Shown here in pieces: positions 6,331-63,794 of a stretch of 64,000 nt of DNA (within the stretch, counting starts at the first letter, position 1; each line of letters starts with the position of its first letter). The position numbers were made by a program, and so were the translations under genes. Source of the DNA: an uncultured Christensenellaceae bacterium (GTDB taxonomy: Bacteria; Bacillota; Clostridia; Christensenellales; CAG-314); contig CAJUIZ010000003.1 of the NCBI GenBank assembly GCA_910586625.1, positions 55,254 to 119,253 on the forward strand. The letters are read 5' to 3'. The notes beneath the pieces were generated by a model. It was not told the origin of the DNA, did not search any database, and worked only from the letters and a program-made list of their open reading frames with translations.

Positions 6331-6756
6331 ATGAAAAAAATTATTTTAGCTATTATGATAATTGCAACGCTTTGCACGGCGTTTACCGCAACCTGCGCCG
6401 TAGGTCAAACGGCTGAAGAAAAAATATGCGAAATTGCAAAAAGCAACGACAAAATATTAGACGCGAAGTGCATAGTATACCAACGCACCTGTCTTGTTGC
6501 GATTAAAACTGAAAAATTCGTTACTCGCAGCGAATACGATCTGTATCTTGCAAACGTACGTCAACAGATTACTTCGGAATGCGAAATAGATAACGTTTAC
6601 GTTACGCGCAGTCCCAAGGTTATGAAAAAACTTAGCGAATTAGAAAAATTAAACGATAAGCAACGTCAACAGGCCATACAGGAAATAATAGAAAAAGAAC
6701 TGAACAAAGGTCTGCCGCCTATTAAGGACATTATGCCGAGATGTTTTAGTTGGTAA
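6331..6756 (+). CDS. secreted/lipoprotein, YhcN/YlaJ-like sporulation lipoprotein (tentative)
   Basis: Signal peptide MKKIILAIMIIATLCTAFTATC. Core pattern CIVYQRTCLVAIKTE...IDNVYVTRSPKVMKKL resembles YhcN/YlaJ family blocks as I recall them. RBS GGGAGA. Confidence 0.5.
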   Translation: MKKIILAIMIIATLCTAFTATCAVGQTAEEKICEIAKSNDKILDAKCIVYQRTCLVAIKTEKFVTRSEYDLYLANVRQQITSECEIDNVYVTRSPKVMKKLSELEKLNDKQRQQAIQEIIEKELNKGLPPIKDIMPRCFSW

Positions 6757-6763
6757 TAAATTT

Positions 6764-7052
6764 AATGCGCAACGCGCAATGCGTAATGCGTAATGAAGAA
6801 AGCCCGTTGGAACAACGGGCTTTCGTTTTTTATATAAGGTTACGCTTCGCTATATTTCTCGCTCGTTTGAAAACCTTCGCCGTCTTTTGGCGAAACTGCG
6901 CTACGCTCCGCTCGAAATGACGTTCCTTAGATTTCTCCACTCGCTTCGCTCGGTCGAAATGACGTTCATCTTCACTTCGTTCGATAAACGTTTCGGTAAA
7001 GGACACCGAATGTTGCGGCGTTCGCAAGTCTTCGACTTTCTCGGCTAAGGAC
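6764..7052 (+). repeat. composite modular repeat element, copy A
   Basis: Order of parts: five heptads (AATGCGC AACGCGC AATGCGT AATGCGT AATGAAG), a hairpin, AAGGTTACGCTTCGC, M1 (6931-6965), TCATCTTCACTTCGTTCGATAAACG, M2 (6991-7010), M3 (7017-7052). The order is colinear with copy D at 24332-24520. Confidence 0.8.
6798..6831 (+). terminator. rho-independent terminator embedded in repeat copy A
   Basis: GAAAGCCCGTTGG-aa-CAACGGGCTTTC followed by GTTTTTT, 40 nt after the stop of 6331-6756. Confidence 0.7.
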
Positions 7053-9002: not shown

Positions 9003-9200
9003 AATGCGTAATGCGTAATTAGAAAAGCCCGTTTGACAACGGGCTTGCGTTTTTATAAGGTGTCGCTGCGCCGAACTTCTCCGTACGCTTCGCTTTTTTA
9101 ATGCGTAACGCGCAATGCGCAATGCGTAATTAGGGTTACGCTTCGATAGACTTCTCGGCTACTTGTCATGTCGAGCGCAGTTTCGGCAAAGGTCGCCGAA
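9003..9200 (+). repeat. modular repeat region, copy B (two heptad arrays)
   Basis: Heptads at 9003-9023 plus hairpin AAGCCCGTTTGACAACGGGCTT (9025-9046). A partial M1 lies at 9075-9095. A second five-heptad array is at 9100-9134, and M2 (TTTCGGCAAAGGTCGCCGAA) is at 9181-9200. Confidence 0.75.
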
Positions 9201-9240
9201 CGTTGCGAGACGTCTATGCGAGCGGAGCGAGTAGCATTTT

Positions 9241-11755: not shown

Positions 11756-11887
11756 GAATAATTAAACACACAAGGAACCGTCAAAATTCTGACTTTCATA
11801 AATAATTTTACCTGCAACAAAAACTAATAGCCCGCTAACTTCGTAAGCGAAGTATAGCGGGCTACATTTTATTCGGTGTTTACTTTT

Positions 11888-12280
11888 CGTCATTGCGAGG
11901 CATTTATGCCGAAGCAATTTAGACATTTAAGCTACTGTATGAGTTTATAATACAAATCTTCCCAATTGGGATTCATCGTTTCTATCAAATTTAACTTTGC
12001 TTTGCGAGAACCGCCTTTTATTTGCTTTTCACGTTGGATTGCATCGGTAATATCCGCAAATATTTCGTAATATCCGAGTTTATCGACGTTGTACTTTTTA
12101 GTAAAGCCATCGACGGTTTTGCTTTTATGTTCCCAAACTCGACGAATTAAATTATTCGTTACACCGGTATACAATGTGCCGTTTCGAAAATTAAACATTA
12201 TATACACATAAGAAACGCGATTGTTCATATTTTACTTGTTTATTCTGGATTGCTTTGTCGCTTCGCTCCGCGCAATGACG
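11888..12280 (-). mobile_element. candidate minimal GIY-YIG unit: nuclease ORF bracketed by inverted hairpin motifs
   Basis: Left end is CGTCATTGCGAGG (11888-11900). Right end is CCGCGCAATGACG (12268-12280), whose reverse complement CGTCATTGCGCGG matches 12 of 13 positions. Each end sits in an ATTGC...GCAAT hairpin. I saw no target-site duplication. Confidence 0.4.
11932..12228 (-). CDS. GIY-YIG nuclease family protein (UPF0213/COG2827 type, 98 aa)
   Basis: YVYIMFNFRNGTLYTGVTNNLIRRVWEHK...REKQIKGGSRKAK is the classical GIY...YTG...R..EH...E core. Confidence 0.85.
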   Translation of the reverse strand: MNNRVSYVYIMFNFRNGTLYTGVTNNLIRRVWEHKSKTVDGFTKKYNVDKLGYYEIFADITDAIQREKQIKGGSRKAKLNLIETMNPNWEDLYYKLIQ

Positions 12281-12354
12281 GCGGGGATAATGCTTGTTGC
12301 GGTAGTATAGAGTTGGGACTGAATAATAAAGAACGGAATATTTGCGGCGGCGCG

Positions 12355-18029: not shown

Positions 18030-18201
18030 AATGCGGGTGCGCTGCGCTTTTTTAATGCGTAATTAAAGGTTTCGCTGCGATAGACTTCTCCGCGCGCAAC
18101 ACTGACGTGTTGCTTGGTCGAAGTGACATTTGCAAGGTGTCGCTTCTCTTCTTAATGCGTAATGTCGGAAGCCCGTTGGAACAACGGTCTTACATTTTTT
18201 T
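18030..18201 (+). repeat. modular repeat region, copy C
   Basis: Heptads at 18054-18067. M1 at 18084-18129 carries an internal GCAACAC-tgac-GTGTTGC stem. Further heptads are at 18154-18167, followed by a degenerate hairpin (18169-18191) and T7. Confidence 0.75.
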
Positions 18202-18216
18202 ATAAGGTTTCGCTTG

Positions 18217-22657: not shown

Positions 22658-24340
22658 ATGAAAAACAAGTGGTACAAGGAAGCTGTATTTTACCAAATTT
22701 ATCCGCGAAGCTTTAAGGACTCCGACGGCGACGGCGTGGGCGACATACGCGGAATAATATCCAAAATAGACTATTTGGCGGATTTGGGCGTAGACGCTAT
22801 TTGGTTTTCGCCCCTATACGCAAGCCCCAACGCCGACTACGGCTATGATATATCCGACTACAAGGCGATAAACCCCGAATACGGTACGATGGACGACTTC
22901 GACGAGATGGTACGCCTGCTGCACGGCAAAGGCATACGGGTAATAATGGACCTTGTAATAAACCACACCAGCGACAAACACGAGTGGTTTGTCAATGCCC
23001 GTTCTTCACGCGATGACCCTTACCGCGACTACTACTACTTCCGCGACGGACGGGGCAAAAACGGCAAAAAACCGCCCAATAACTGGACGAGCTTTTTTGT
23101 GGGAAGCGCGTGGAAATACGAAGAAAACACAAAGCAATGGTATCTGCACCTGTTCGACGAAAACCAACCCGACCTTAACTACTTTAACCCGCGCGTTATG
23201 GAAGAAATAAAGGGTATTCTGCGCTTTTGGCTGGATAAGGGCGTGGACGGCTTCCGCTGCGACGTGATTACGCTGCTTTCCAAAACGGCGGGACTGCCCA
23301 GCGGCAAAAAGCGAATTGCGCTGACAGGCAGCGAATACTACATTGACGGCGACAGAATGGAAGAATATCTAGGCGAGCTTCAAGAAGTTCTGCGCGAATA
23401 CGACGCCTTTACCGTGGGCGAAAGCGTGTTTATTACGGTAGATAAAGCGTTACGCTACACAAGCGAAGACAACGAATATCTGACCACCGTGTTTTCCTTC
23501 GACCACGTTTCGGCGGACAATCGTTTCGGGATAAAGCAACTGCCGAAAAAATTTAATCTGCTTGACTTGAAGCGGGCGTTGACCCGTTGGCAGAACGGCT
23601 TGTACGGCAAAAGCTGGAATACGCTGTTTTGGGAAAACCACGACAGCGCGCGCATTGTGGGCAGGTACGTTAGCGACAGGGTAAACCGCGAAGAAGGGGC
23701 GAAGATGCTTGCGACCGTGCTGCTTACCCTTTCCGGAACGCCGTTTATCTATCAAGGGCAGGAGTTCGGCACGATTTCCGCAAGAATGACGGATATAAAG
23801 GACTACAAGGACGTGGACGCGCTACGCAGCTACGCTTTGCTTAAAAAGCTGTTCGGGAAGAAAAAAGCCATGAAAAAATTAGCGTACTGCTCGCGGGATA
23901 ACGCGCGTACCCCCGTGCAATGGGACGACACGCAAAACGCAGGCTTTACGACAGGCGAGCCTTGGCTTAAAGTTGCGCCGAGCTATCGAGATATTAACGC
24001 GAAGCAAGCGGAAAAGGACGGAAATTCCGTACTGCACTACTACAAAAAACTTATAAAGCTTCGCAAAGGCGACAAGGCGTTTGTGTACGGCAAGTATCAA
24101 GACCTGTTGCCCAAAAGTAAAAAGCTGCTTGCGTATCTCCGTGAAAGCGAATACGGAAAACTGATTGTGATAAACAATTTTTCGCTGAAAACCGCGAAAT
24201 TTACACTGCCGAAGGGTATAGACGGCGGCGCGTATACGCTGATTACAAGCAACTACGCCGATTCGCCGAAAAAACTTGGAACTACGGCTTTACGCCCATA
24301 TGAAAGTATTGTGTATAAAGCCGACGGCAAAAATGCGTAA
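22658..24340 (+). CDS. GH13 alpha-glucosidase / oligo-1,6-glucosidase
   Basis: FYQIYPRSF, DLVINHTS, DGFRCDVI, GESV and WENHDSAR conserved regions. Confidence 0.9.
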   Translation: MKNKWYKEAVFYQIYPRSFKDSDGDGVGDIRGIISKIDYLADLGVDAIWFSPLYASPNADYGYDISDYKAINPEYGTMDDFDEMVRLLHGKGIRVIMDLVINHTSDKHEWFVNARSSRDDPYRDYYYFRDGRGKNGKKPPNNWTSFFVGSAWKYEENTKQWYLHLFDENQPDLNYFNPRVMEEIKGILRFWLDKGVDGFRCDVITLLSKTAGLPSGKKRIALTGSEYYIDGDRMEEYLGELQEVLREYDAFTVGESVFITVDKALRYTSEDNEYLTTVFSFDHVSADNRFGIKQLPKKFNLLDLKRALTRWQNGLYGKSWNTLFWENHDSARIVGRYVSDRVNREEGAKMLATVLLTLSGTPFIYQGQEFGTISARMTDIKDYKDVDALRSYALLKKLFGKKKAMKKLAYCSRDNARTPVQWDDTQNAGFTTGEPWLKVAPSYRDINAKQAEKDGNSVLHYYKKLIKLRKGDKAFVYGKYQDLLPKSKKLLAYLRESEYGKLIVINNFSLKTAKFTLPKGIDGGAYTLITSNYADSPKKLGTTALRPYESIVYKADGKNA

Positions 24341-24520
24341 TGCGTAACGCTCAATGCGTAATGAAGGAAGCCCGTTTGACAACGGGCTTACATTTTCAGA
24401 AGGTTACGCTTCGCCGAATTTCTCCACGCGTTCGCCACGCTCGCTTGGTCGAAATGACTTTATCTTCACTTCGTTCGATAAACGTCGGCGTTTGCGACTG
24501 ACGTCGCTCGGCTAAGGACA
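24332..24520 (+). repeat. composite modular repeat element, copy D (colinear with copy A)
   Basis: Order of parts: five heptads at 24332-24366, hairpin at 24368-24389, AAGGTTACGCTTCGC, M1 at 24418-24458, TTATCTTCACTTCGTTCGATAAACG, M3 at 24487-24519. The first heptads overlap the last codons and the stop of the alpha-glucosidase gene. Confidence 0.8.
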
Positions 24521-24572
24521 TAGTTAAACGCTCGGTCAAAGTAACGTAGTAAGGCTGTGCGGCTGTCGCCTG

Positions 24573-24807
24573 GACTTCTCCACGCGGGGCTTCGCCCCTT
24601 GGTCGAAGTGACATAATAAATAGTTAATCGAACTGATGTAATAAATATTGGTCGAAATACTCCGCATTATTGCTTATTCATATATTAAGCAATTGTTTTG
24701 ATAGCATTTTTAGTATTATTACCGATAGTGATGCTCCGTTTCGCCAAAGGGCGGCGAAGGCATAGATGCACGGGCGTTCGCATTGCAAGCAACGCTTGGC
24801 TAAGGAC
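24573..24807 (+). repeat. additional hairpin modules (M1, M2, M3)
   Basis: M1 at 24573-24613 has stem GGGGC-ttc-GCCCC. M2 (TTTCGCCAAAGGGCGGCGAA) is at 24739-24758. An M3 variant is at 24773-24807. Confidence 0.7.
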
Positions 24808-24900
24808 ATAAACTAATAAAAACAACGCCTGACAAATTGTCGGGCGTTTATGATTGCCGTTTATTTTTTATGTGGGGGGGGATAAAAACATCACTTCTTC

Positions 24901-24998
24901 GTCAAAAGCATTTTCGCATATTCACTTTTCAATGCGACGTAACTTCTCAGTCAAAAGCATTTTAACATAATAACTTTTCAATGTAACGAATTTGCTTG
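24901..24998 (+). repeat. 49-bp tandem direct repeat, two units at about 70% identity
   Basis: Unit 1 starts GTCAAAAGCATTTTCGCATATTCACTTTTCAATGCGACG. Unit 2 starts GTCAAAAGCATTTTAACATAATAACTTTTCAATGTAACG. A G8 tract lies at 24874-24881. Confidence 0.7.
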
Positions 24999-25036: not shown

Positions 25037-25498
25037 TTATTCCGTCGGCAGCAGAGTTTTAACATAGTCGTCGGGCGGACTTTCCACGTAGGTTACATAT
25101 GAGAGTTCGCTCTCGTCGGCGCGGTAAATTTTTACCGTAAGCTTGCGCGTTTGCGCGGAATAACACACGCAGTTGAATACGATTGCAGGGACAAAGCCGT
25201 CCTTGGTAACCGTTACGGTTGCCGTACCCCATTCCGAAACGGACGCGTCGTAGCAGTTGGTTAAAGCATCCAGTTCGATTACGGGGGATACGCCCTTGTT
25301 ATCCGTATAGAAGGTTTTGCCCGCAACCGTAACGCGCGCGTTATGCACGGGAAGATTGTCCAAGCCCACCACCGTAACCCTTATATTTGTAGATTTTGCC
25401 GAAGCGGATATTGCCGACCTGTCTAACACGGTTAGCACGGACAATACCAACGCCAGTACCGTCAAAGCCGCGGCTACGCTTTTTAACGTTGCTTTCAT
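25037..25498 (-). CDS. secreted or membrane-anchored hypothetical protein (153 aa)
   Basis: N-terminal signal/anchor, then beta-rich sequence (IRVTVVGLDN..ARVTVAGKTFYTDNKG), carboxypeptidase-regulatory-like. Confidence 0.6.
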   Translation of the reverse strand: MKATLKSVAAALTVLALVLSVLTVLDRSAISASAKSTNIRVTVVGLDNLPVHNARVTVAGKTFYTDNKGVSPVIELDALTNCYDASVSEWGTATVTVTKDGFVPAIVFNCVCYSAQTRKLTVKIYRADESELSYVTYVESPPDDYVKTLLPTE

Positions 25499-28150: not shown

Positions 28151-28267
28151 GCAGGTGTGGTGGAATACTCGACTTCGTCTCGTGGCGTTCGCGACTGTCG
28201 TCGCTCGGCTAAGGGCAGACGCGTTGGACGCGTGAGATTGTAGGTATTAACCTAACTGTACTGTAAC
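28151..28267 (+). pseudogene. disrupted, truncated tRNA-Leu copy with a 47-nt repeat module in the D-loop
   Basis: GCAGGTGTGGTGGAAT (28151-28166) and GGCAGACGCGTTGGAC (28214-28229) are identical to positions 1-16 and 17-32 of the intact gene. They are separated by ACTCGACTTCGTCTCGTGGCGTTCGCGACTGTCGTCGCTCGGCTAAG, an M3 module. Similarity decays after the anticodon stem. Confidence 0.7.
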
Positions 28268-28353
28268 GCAGGTGTGGTGGAATGGCAGACGCGTTGGACT
28301 CAAAATCCAATGTAGGTGACTACGTGTGGGTTCAAGTCCCACCACCTGCACCA
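28268..28353 (+). tRNA. tRNA-Leu, anticodon CAA, CCA encoded
   Basis: GCAGGTG TG GTGGAATGGCAGACGC G TTGGA CTCAAAA TCCAA TGTAGGTGACTACGT GTGGG TTCAAGT CCCAC CACCTGC A CCA. Confidence 0.9.
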
Positions 28354-29348: not shown

Positions 29349-29424
29349 CTACCCGTAGTCTAATTGGATAAAATTACGCCCTCCGACGGCGTTGTTTCGG
29401 GTTCGAGTCCCGACGGGTAGACCA
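29349..29424 (+). tRNA. tRNA-Arg, anticodon CCG, CCA encoded
   Basis: CTACCCG TA GTCT AATTGGATA AAAT T ACGCC CTCCGAC GGCGT TGTT TCGGG TTCGAGT CCCGA CGGGTAG A CCA. There is one D-stem mismatch and a 4-nt variable region. Confidence 0.8.
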
Positions 29425-29433
29425 GTTTCGCAG
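29404..29433 (+). repeat. 30-bp direct repeat, copy 1 (tRNA-Arg 3' end plus 9 nt of flank)
   Basis: CGAGTCCCGACGGGTAGACCAGTTTCGCAG, identical to 29627-29656. Confidence 0.9.
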
Positions 29434-29537
29434 GCATCGGTAAGCTGCATAAAAAAGGACGCATTTATTTGCGTTCTTTTTTATATTGCCTTGTGTTTCA
29501 TCGCCTTGCCGTAAACCCTTAGGTACGGTCCGAAATA

Positions 29538-29627
29538 CTTCGCTGCGCTTCGTGGCGTTCGCAATCTTCGATTGCTCGGCTAAGAACGTAGCGTTCCGCT
29601 TTGCTCCACGTACCGACTTCGTCGGAC
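29538..29627 (+). repeat. hairpin modules (M3 plus an M1-like module) between the direct repeats
   Basis: CTTCGTGGCGTTCGCAATCTTCGATTGCTCGGCTAAG is followed by TTGCTCCACGTACCGACTTCGTCGGAC, which runs directly into the duplicated tRNA 3' fragment. Confidence 0.7.
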
Positions 29628-29656
29628 GAGTCCCGACGGGTAGACCAGTTTCGCAG
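29627..29656 (+). repeat. 30-bp direct repeat, copy 2
   Basis: Exact copy of 29404-29433. Confidence 0.9.
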
Positions 29657-56030: not shown

Positions 56031-56068
56031 GTTCGCTCGGCAGAGCAATCCAAATGATTGCGAACACC
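56031..56068 (-). repeat. M3-type hairpin module in inverted orientation
   Basis: The reverse complement GGTGTTCGCAATCATTTGGATTGCTCTGCCGAGCGAAC parallels the 29554-29584 copy (GGCGTTCGCAATCTTCGATTGCTCGGCTAAG). The adjacent ACCCGTCGGGT is the inverse of the CCCGACGGGT found at the tRNA-Arg 3' end. Confidence 0.45.
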
Positions 56069-63482: not shown

Positions 63483-63631
63483 AAAAATTAATTCCTTTAC
63501 CTGTCGGGTTTATGTTGTATTTTAGTATAGCGGACAGAAAAAAACTTAATATTTGCCCGATAGGCAACGAAAAAGTTTTATATTAGGTACTTCGGGAGAA
63601 ATATATGAATTATAGTGCGACTATCGTCTGG

Positions 63632-63666
63632 ATTTCTCCGTTCGCTTCGCTCAGTCGAAATGACAT
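63632..63666 (+). repeat. solo M1 hairpin module
   Basis: ATTTCTCCGTTCGCTTCGCTCAGTCGAAATGACAT matches the M1 consensus TTCTCC...GTCGAAATGAC. Confidence 0.7.
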
Positions 63667-63794
63667 AATAAAATCGAGTCAAAACAAAATATATAAAATT
63701 AAGTATCGCTTTGAATAAAAAATTATCACGCCTGCGGGGCGTAAATTGAGTTTTATTTTTTCTTTTGGTGTAAAATAGTTACACAAGTTTAACT

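Follow-up and report, generated by a model that had tools for sequence, protein, structure and literature searches.

The hairpins closest to those considered here are the CGTC-tagged REPs and the substrates of the Ssn nucleases. In CGTC-tagged REPs the tag is unpaired and reads CGTC, often TGTC or else CCTC; the stem starts almost invariably with complementary A-T and then T-A pairs, and the tail is short. They frequently form inverted (hetero)dimers, occur in five phyla and have no associated transposase (PMC3733652). The four families described have uninterrupted stems of 8-9 bp with loops of 4-5 nt, and Firmicutes were not reported among their hosts; Neisseria dRS3 is a member of the group (PMC3733652). 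SsnA, a 94-aa single-domain GIY-YIG nuclease, binds and cuts the dRS3-containing NTS hairpin, acting on single-stranded DNA (ssDNA) only, not on RNA, and on the tagged strand only, with the cut a few nucleotides upstream (PMC11893778). The three bases before the NTS palindrome are most critical for cutting and the C after it for binding, while the loop can be removed, replaced or extended, and such hairpins, termed Ssn-related motifs (SRMs), lie near 71% of ssn homologues, on both sides in 42% (PMC11893778). Here, hairpins termed M1 and type B and a homologue of ssn are described in 64,000 nt (the window, throughout) of an uncultured Christensenellaceae bacterium, a spore-forming, Clostridia-type gut organism (contig CAJUIZ010000003.1, positions 55,254 to 119,253). 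M1 and type B probably form a Clostridia-lineage branch of the CGTC-tagged REP/SRM superfamily and are putative ssDNA substrates of an Ssn enzyme.

M1 is one of three hairpin modules (M1, M2 and M3), all confined to intergenic DNA within the window, that a sequence-only reading of this DNA had picked out. The pattern TTCTCS-N(8-38)-TCGAARTGAC recovers all five sites at which that reading had placed M1 (6933-6963, 18086-18127, 24420-24458, 24576-24612 and 63634-63664), always on the + strand, where 100 shuffles of the window give an expectation of 0. Read on the minus strand, M1 is (C/T)GTC-A(T/C)TTC-GA-CC-[insert]-GG-A-GAA(A/G)T-C. In the fold, a 5-bp outer stem is followed by a small internal loop, a CC(R)/(Y)GG step and, as an insert of 8-30 nt past the basal stem and internal loop, a variable inner hairpin. 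The full copies, all tagged on the minus strand, occupy 6928-6966 (a short form, CGTC-ATTTC-GA-CC-GA-GCGAAGC-GAGT-GG-A-GAAAT-C), 18081-18130 (outer stem ACTTC/GAAGT, inner stem GCAACAC/GTGTTGC), 24415-24461 (outer stem ATTTC/GAAAT; part of mosaic unit D, see below), 24570-24615 (outer stem ACTTC/GAAGT, with GGGGC-GAA-GCCCC as the inner hairpin of the tagged strand) and 63629-63667 (a solitary short form). GTC stands directly 5' of the palindrome in every copy, and the complete tag is CGTC (6931) or TGTC (18084, 24573 and 63632) in four of the five and AGTC in the last (24418). Directly 3' of the palindrome is a C in four of six window copies, counting the five M1 hairpins and type B.

The inner stems of M1 stay paired through their changes, as the sequence-only reading had held; it had overlooked that the outer stem covaries as well (ATTTC/GAAAT three times, ACTTC/GAAGT twice). 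Across the five copies 93% of cells pair and six of 13 pairs have changed on both sides, values attained by 0-1 of 500 shuffles, and in slid controls of the alignment pairing falls to 34-44%. Two partial copies noticed earlier are also real: 6898-6925 is the 3' half of the type B hairpin at 6854-6921, and 9075-9095 (minus strand) is the 5' half, a truncated M1 without tag that ends at the next heptad array. An orphan half-site, with a degenerate tag and the tag-side arm but no partner arm, lies at 24528-24548 on the minus strand, and a second at 24640-24655.

The tagged strand is the G-rich, gene-rich minus strand in all five M1 copies and in type B. The + strand of the window has a negative GC skew and the long genes lie mostly on the minus strand, which is therefore the G-rich "leading-strand" sequence. 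The tagged strand of M1 and type B would then be the lagging-strand template and transiently single-stranded, an assignment drawn from a small sample and confounded with the orientation of the mosaics. For seven of seven window hairpins, DNA folding parameters give the tagged strand a small advantage in stability over the complement.

Type B is an M1-like hairpin, GTC-ATTTC-GA-GC...GC-GA-GAAAT, at 6854-6921 on the minus strand; its form, GTCATTTCGAGC...GTCGAGAAATC, differs from M1 in a C-G pair swapped to G-C. Its loop holds a copy of M2 (6876-6896, minus strand, one mismatch), and a second M2 (9180-9200, + strand) is nested in a degenerate type B hairpin of opposite orientation (GTCATGTCGAGC...GCGAGACGTC, 9165-9215, + strand). 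The remaining copies, both on the + strand, are TTCGGT/ACCGAA at 6990-7010, inside a 24-nt indel relative to unit D, and TTCGCC/GGCGAA at 24738-24758; these two and the copy at 9180-9200 are exact matches. With up to two mismatches, GTTTCGNNAAAGGNNNNCGAA matches five times in the window against 0.38 expected, and four of the matches are true M2 copies. Their stems read GGT/ACC, GGC/GCC and, twice, GCC/GGC, so that both variable pairs are compensated in all four copies, one more (6876-6896) than had been claimed. M2 is an inner hairpin within larger M1-like hairpins.

The window also encodes a candidate partner, which together with its two flanking hairpins was absent from the sequence-only reading. 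The gene at 11932-12228 (minus strand) specifies a 98-aa single-domain GIY-YIG nuclease (Pfam PF01541, residues 6-80, E = 3.4e-15) that matches the N. gonorrhoeae ssnA locus with 45.6% identity over 92% of the query (tblastn, E = 2e-20); that locus, as we verified, is flanked by canonical CGTCATTCCCGC..GCGGGAATCC NTS hairpins. Residues Y9, Y20 and E67 are invariant in our alignment (A1) and spaced as Y6, Y17 and E64 of SsnA, and R30, H34 and N86 are likewise invariant. In length the protein agrees with the Ssn nuclease family (GIY-YIG cd10448), whose members have about 94-100 aa. The sole sequence match in the PDB is a weak one to the UPF0213 (cd10456) protein BH0048 (E = 0.0018). Two inverted CGTCATTGCG...GCAATC hairpins bracket the gene, both with CGTC tags pointing outward: downstream, CGTC-ATTGC-GA-GGCATTTATGCC-GAA-GCAAT-T at 11886-11921 (+ strand; CGTCATTGCGAGGCATTTATGCCGAAGCAATT), and upstream, CGTC-ATTGC-GCG-GA-GCGAAGC-GACAAA-GCAAT-CCAG at 12246-12282 (minus strand; CGTCATTGCGCGGAGCGAAGCGACAAAGCAATCCAG). 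Over the first 11 bases of the tagged strand, type B departs from the ssn-flanking hairpin at a single position (GTCATTTCGAG versus GTCATTGCGAG).

How do these hairpins compare with the described ones? Like the CGTC-tagged REPs, M1 has an unpaired CGTC or TGTC tag, a stem start of A-T then T-A, a short tail beginning with C, an intergenic position after genes, a distribution over distant phyla and no known transposase; inverted heterodimers, seen in many genomes, may be a further common feature, although the copies in the window are mostly co-oriented. The stem start is seen in ATTTC/GAAAT of three M1 copies and type B and in ATTGC/GCAAT at ssn; in the ACTTC/GAAGT of the other two M1 copies the second pair is swapped compensatorily. 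With the Ssn/NTS system M1 shares GTC before the palindrome, a stem that starts A-T or A-Y, C directly after, strand asymmetry, a variable and extendable loop and hundreds of dispersed intergenic copies, and the window shares with it a gene for a single-domain GIY-YIG protein of about 95 aa between two inverted hairpins. The Ssn family has been described mainly in Pseudomonadati, whereas the host here is a Gram-positive, Clostridia-type bacterium; and where NTS has a perfect TCCCGC stem, the window has ATTGC (ssn) and AYYTC (M1) stems, a GA internal loop and a second variable hairpin. The sequence-only reading had presented its modules as an undescribed family, to be given up should they match a known repeat. 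For M1 such a match exists: it carries the defining marks of CGTC-tagged REPs and SRMs (PMC3733652, PMC11893778). M1 is a lineage-specific example of an already known kind of element, with lineage-specific companion modules.

The M1 motif extends well beyond Clostridia. A scan of one genome per GTDB species (596 Gb) yielded at least 120 loci, and among the 138 matches listed the motif occurs in at least a dozen phyla. The hosts listed include Clostridia, Bacteroidota (Bacteroidales, Pedobacter), Planctomycetota, Acidobacteriota, Alpha- and Gammaproteobacteria, Verrucomicrobiota, several lineages of Patescibacteria, Chloroflexota, Cloacimonadota, Actinomycetota (Bifidobacterium, Coriobacteriales) and others. 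By our own estimate, several hundred chance matches to the 18-base scan pattern are expected in 596 Gb. A GAT extension that was not in the query is present in 113 of the 138 listed matches (consensus aGATTTCTCCRCT..CGGTCGAAATGACa), and several metagenome-assembled genomes contribute M1 on more than one contig or in more than one copy. Most of the matches are thus not due to chance, and the motif is a real element shared across phyla. One weak partial match was found in the plasmid collection searched for M1 and none in the phage collection.

Sibling hairpins around M1 differ in the basal stem only (ATTCC, ATCCT, ATCTC, ATTGC, ATTCT and others), each followed by GA. Among 448 unique GTC-tagged hairpins drawn from 200 loci, the base after the palindrome is C in 92%, and the tagged strand has 136 occurrences of GCGNAGC where the complement has 5. 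As a DNA mini-hairpin, d(GCGAAGC) is classically known for its extra stability. Of 56 long M1 inserts, 24 include a perfect stem of 5 bp or more, compared with 4.3 in shuffles, and long inserts without such a stem have direct repeats, CGCTCGCT..CGCTCGCT; in the matches listed, the bases bordering the insert also tend to direct repetition (CTNN...CTNN). In the at least 120 loci of other genomes, inversion is seen in 77 of 99 adjacent hairpin pairs, with tags outward in 59, unlike the co-oriented copies of the window.

Relatives of the window Ssn homologue (proteins 52-69% identical) were examined in 80 metagenomic loci. Within 150 nt of these genes lie 196 tagged hairpins, typically forward upstream and reverse downstream, with the stems ATTGC (116), ATTCC (26), ATTCT (16), ATCCC (9) and others. 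Half-sites "stutter" at some of these genes (L148, L151, L155, L166 and L168), two or three tandem copies of the tag and left arm (for example, GTCATTCCCGC...GTCATTCCCGC...) preceding one complete hairpin. Separately, at L078 (4357-4873), in a metagenome-assembled Saccharibacteria genome, an ssn homologue sits between two co-oriented TGTCATCCCA..TGGGATCCAG hairpins, next to which come an inverted ATTCC-type and then an M1-type hairpin; several stem classes thus coexist beside one nuclease gene. The search for genes between inverted M1-type pairs was noisy, and the ssn cassette alone stood out.

Closely related genomes show how the cassette and the repeats behave over shorter distances. In a sister lineage (L212-L214, PGI 98% identical) the ssn cassette is identical from tag to tag bar one base, and the sequence upstream of it diverges through a 58-nt indel (window 12283-12354 versus L207 and L212) that lies a few bases at most from the CGTC tag on the upstream hairpin. 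This indel is on the side of the tag where Ssn enzymes reportedly cut. One genomic context was recovered for the ssn protein, and the tRNA loci have the same gene neighbourhood in 24 of 24 contigs. In a more distant species (L209, PGI 85%), the M1 orthologue between pgi and hisS reads ATCTC/GAGAT and GCAACGC/GCGTTGC in place of the ACTTC/GAAGT and GCAACAC/GTGTTGC of the window, and the M1-linker-M3 composite likewise follows the amylase gene. In L211 (80%) the pgi-hisS gap measures 9 nt, and a type B hairpin with ACCTC/GAGGT follows the amylase gene; at the amylase site of L212-L214 there is leader X (a mosaic component, see below) and the 3' box of M3 only. Presence and absence of the repeats together with the double stem changes indicate that they are gained and lost between species while the stems change by compensated steps. 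In line with the sequence-only reading, the repeats behave as insertions or deletions when related species are compared. The identical alpha-amylase protein is present in 209 blocks of the metagenome collection, and the nearest named relatives of the window genes are in metagenome-assembled genomes of Clostridia or Clostridiales. Upstream of the common PMI-amylase block, L212 carries genes for a SMODS-domain (CBASS-like) and a DUF6602 protein (668-1510), at the site of which L213 has AAA_14/DUF4143 genes.

We picture the action of an Ssn enzyme on M1 and type B as follows. The substrate would be the tagged (minus) strand, with its unpaired (C/T)GTC tag and a 5-bp A/T-rich basal stem pairing A-Y-Y-T-C with G-A-R-R-T; above this would lie the GA-containing internal loop and a freely varying apical hairpin, often with a GCGAAGC cap, and C would follow the palindrome. 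Such hairpins could become exposed when DNA is single-stranded, as in replication, transformation or repair. A small GIY-YIG Ssn nuclease, for which the product of 11932-12228 is the candidate, its gene lying between two closely related hairpins, would bind the hairpin and nick the strand a few nucleotides 5' of the tag. Nicking may affect ssDNA survival, recombination and local rearrangement and, indirectly, the spread or loss of the repeats. That the window hairpins would be bound and cut as ssDNA is argued by analogy with the literature on SsnA.

A number of observations weigh against assigning M1 to this system. The 5-bp basal stem, internal loop and 8-30 nt insert set M1 apart from the CGTC-tagged REPs, and the published SRM pattern, HGTCWYN(0-2)YYVSBRHN(0-5)WNVSBRGN(0-2)RNCYNB, has 0 matches on both strands of the window and so misses even the hairpins flanking ssn. 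Folding with standard DNA parameters gives the short M1 forms no advantage in stability over shuffled sequence. The hairpins that flank ssn are not M1, whose nearest copies lie 2.7 kb and 5.8 kb off; M1-type stems account for one of the 196 hairpins beside ssn relatives, and by tblastn and profile search ssn occurs in one (L078) of the at least 120 M1 loci listed. Despite the same ssn cassette, L212-L214 lack M1 at all three orthologous intergenic sites compared, and no insertion polymorphism of the repeats was found among four same-species contigs, in which locus D is identical over 7.7 kb except for a change in poly-G length. For M3, the proposed outer helix TGGC/GCTA is poorly supported, being invariant and including a G-T pair, and that pair favours the + strand, opposite to the tagged strand.

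Which enzyme, then, would act on M1? The near base-for-base conservation of the motif in at least a dozen phyla, outside the SRM pattern and almost never next to ssn, means that the partner enzyme may differ. M1-type hairpins (GTC-AYYTC-GA...GARRT-C) might accordingly be a pan-bacterial SRM class of their own, served by another enzyme or spread by Ssn-initiated events, although we consider this rather doubtful. No GIY-YIG motif was found within 400 nt of the 138 listed M1 matches, and all-against-all clustering of 4556 open reading frames (ORFs) around M1 in the at least 120 loci gave no recurring neighbour protein. Alternatively, ssDNA events initiated by Ssn could insert hairpins into hairpin loops and tRNA genes. 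Hints of such insertion are M2 within type B, M3 within a tRNA-Leu D-loop fragment, the CTNN direct repeats, the 58-nt indel a few bases from a CGTC tag and the orphan half-sites.

M1, M2 and M3, together with AATGCGY heptads, an intrinsic terminator and a leader (X), make up BIME-like intergenic mosaics, so that the modular assembly for which the sequence-only reading had invoked REP/BIME and BOX elements is borne out. The components are co-oriented and follow the order heptads, terminator (AAGCCCGTT..AACGGGCTT with a T run), leader X (GGTTACGCTTCGC), M1, conserved linker, optional M2 and M3. Unit A (6764-7052) and unit D (24332-24520) are colinear and differ, as had been noted, by whole modules, namely an approximately 85-nt hairpin and the 24-nt M2. 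The head of unit A (6764-6853, + strand) consists of a heptad array, the terminator (6798-6824) and leader X, and further copies of the head lie at 9003-9075, 9100-9150, 18154-18216 and 24332-24417; a gene for a YhcN/YlaJ spore lipoprotein occupies 6331-6756. Arrays of two to five AATGCG(T/C) heptads, at 6764-6797, 9003-9024, 9100-9133 and 24332-24365, stand directly 5' of the shared terminator hairpin or leader X, and the heptad pattern matches 16 times in the window against 4.4 expected. In the M1 loci from other phyla (at least 120) M2 and M3 have no match and the heptads one isolated pattern match, which marks these components as lineage-specific.

Pneumococcal BOX elements are comparable as intergenic mosaics of modules (A-B-C) that vary in number and have the potential to form hairpins, but no sequence relationship to M1 was found, and they have no tag, basal stem and tail signature and no known nuclease. 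The E. coli REP/BIME and REPIN-RAYT systems likewise have tagged hairpins in mosaics with conserved linkers and, as would hold here by analogy, recognition of ssDNA by the enzyme of a single-copy, hairpin-flanked gene; they differ in their GTAG tag, Y1 HUH transposase and species-specific sequences, against the GTC tag and cross-phylum occurrence of M1. The suggestion that the repeats give rise to spurious ORFs is plausible, and a 53-aa "gene" has been called on the repeats after the amylase gene (L123 and L124). Downstream of unit D, a poly-G tract at 24866-24874 (8-10 G), upstream of a 153-aa ORF (25037-25498), may be a slippage or phase-variable tract; two tandem 49-nt units, 80% identical (ACATCACTTCTTCGTCAAAAGCATTTTCGCATATTCACTTTTCAATGCG), lie at 24888-24985, upstream of the same minus-strand ORF.

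M3, a companion hairpin specific to the lineage, has a less certain fold. Its 3' box, CTCGGCTAAGGAC with up to two mismatches, matches the window six times against 1.0 expected, and five of these are the copies claimed by the sequence-only reading. All on the + strand, they lie at 7017-7052 (GGCGTTCGC-[GCAAGTC/GACTTTC]-TCGGCTAAGGAC), 24487-24519 (inner stem GCGAC/GTCGC, with an orthologue in L209), 24773-24807, 28167-28216 (with a 17-nt 5' extension) and 29540-29587 (also with a 5' extension). The stem at 24773 is one of its own, outside the pairs that had been claimed, and GCAATC/GATTGC, said to occur twice, does so once in canonical M3. An inverted copy had also been proposed at 56031-56068 (minus strand, downstream of tRNA-Gly); this M3-like hairpin shares the 5' box and the inner stem GCAATC/GATTGC but has a different 3' box. 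The covariation of M3 is weaker than that of M1: only four inner pairs align in register and double changes affect two of these, a result that 31-92 of 500 shuffles attain, according to the measure taken. In two copies, GAA loops speak for the minus strand.

Several copies of M3 lie in rearranged tRNA loci. Directly upstream of the real tRNA-Leu(CAA) gene (28268-28353) lies a decayed tandem copy of its 5' two-thirds (fragment 28151-28229; 28151-28353 with the gene), preceded by promoter-like TTGACA..TATATT; precisely at its D-loop position (GGAAT^GGCAGAC) the fragment is interrupted by a 47-nt M3 unit. The copy at 29540-29587 lies within a 193-nt segment, carrying a terminator and M3, between exact 30-nt direct repeats (29404-29433 and 29627-29656) that consist of the 3' end of tRNA-Arg(CCG) and nine downstream bases. 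The whole region 29404-29656 looks like an att-type duplication or a miniature insertion.

Could the modules instead be structured RNA elements (3'-UTR stabilisers, processing sites or small RNAs) transcribed with upstream genes or tRNAs? They do lie downstream of genes and beside terminators; M3 at 28184, between the promoter-like sequence and tRNA-Leu, would be expected to be co-transcribed; the + strand G-U pair is kept in five of five M3 copies, and RNA folds of several copies are better than those of shuffled sequence. Yet M1 is oriented independently of transcription: the copy at 18084 is situated between two minus-strand genes, while those at 6931 and 24418 follow plus-strand genes, behind strong terminators. 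In the Rfam search that the sequence-only reading had proposed, three tRNAs alone reached the gathering score of the covariance models in the window, and at permissive thresholds (E <= 10 or E <= 1) both main repeat regions gave no credible match. The 136:5 asymmetry of the GCGNAGC cap and the GTC tag with its C tail fit an ssDNA nuclease that does not bind RNA (PMC11893778), and a local RNA function would not readily account for one 30-nt motif in a dozen phyla. An RNA role for the repeats is hence improbable, and where the earlier reading had left the choice between structured RNA and ssDNA, the ssDNA side holds, the GTC-tagged strand bearing the family signature.

For M3 alone, an origin as att-site debris of site-specific integration or recombination at tRNA genes, unconnected with M1, is decidedly improbable. 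Three of six M3 or M3-like copies adjoin tRNA genes, one of them between the 30-nt tRNA-Arg repeats and one in the duplicated tRNA-Leu 5' fragment. The other three, however, are away from tRNAs and joined to M1 by the conserved linker, here and in L209; no integrase gene was seen near the tRNA-linked copies, and M3 repeats the design of M1, with conserved boxes around a variable inner hairpin.

The resemblance to REP/REPIN sequences raises the further alternative of miniature elements, of REP/REPIN or IS200/IS605 derivation, mobilized by a Y1 (HUH) transposase (RAYT) whose gene lies in another part of the genome. Hairpins with unpaired tags in BIME-like mosaics, the inverted doublets of other genomes (tags outward in 59 of 99 adjacent pairs) and the co-orientation on one replication strand, typical of ssDNA transposition, would suit such elements. 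But the tag is GTC rather than GTAG, the literature associates no transposase with CGTC-tagged REPs (PMC3733652), no transposase-like family is among the 25 Pfam families listed, of 69, for 56 window ORFs, no protein family recurs beside M1 in the at least 120 loci, and the only enzyme gene bracketed by such hairpins here encodes a GIY-YIG nuclease; mobilization by a RAYT is thus very unlikely. It is hardly credible that an old burst left the repeats as functionless remnants in decay, kept paired by gene conversion or templated palindrome repair rather than by selection or enzyme recognition: the uniformity of the four same-species contigs, the many truncated or half copies and the weak folding of the short forms would fit, but across phyla it is the apical part that varies freely, with tag, basal stem and tail conserved, the stems of orthologous copies have changed compensatorily on both sides, and ssn is intact, its cassette identical in the sister-lineage contigs examined. 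Hammerhead or other ribozyme cores, integron attC sites, solo CRISPR repeats and miniature inverted-repeat transposable elements with terminal inverted repeats and target duplications were considered and dropped after the sequence had been read; the module sequences, searched as strings in the text of 8 million papers, returned unrelated primer matches only.

To our knowledge, Ssn nucleases are the only site-specific ssDNA endonucleases. With the probable assignment of M1 and type B to their substrates, this locus provides a Gram-positive, gut-abundant example with an intact ssn cassette, alongside a second and far more widespread hairpin class missed by the published SRM pattern. If Ssn-initiated hairpin insertion were true, it would be a GIY-YIG-based counterpart of the RAYT/REPIN system. 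Recognition of the motif averts spurious ORF calls and false reports of novel non-coding RNAs in metagenomes. The sister lineages, which have the same nuclease cassette with repeats present or absent at three orthologous sites, offer natural variation that makes the recognition of the hairpins by the enzyme, their spread via ssDNA cleavage and the rearrangement of DNA near tRNA genes testable.

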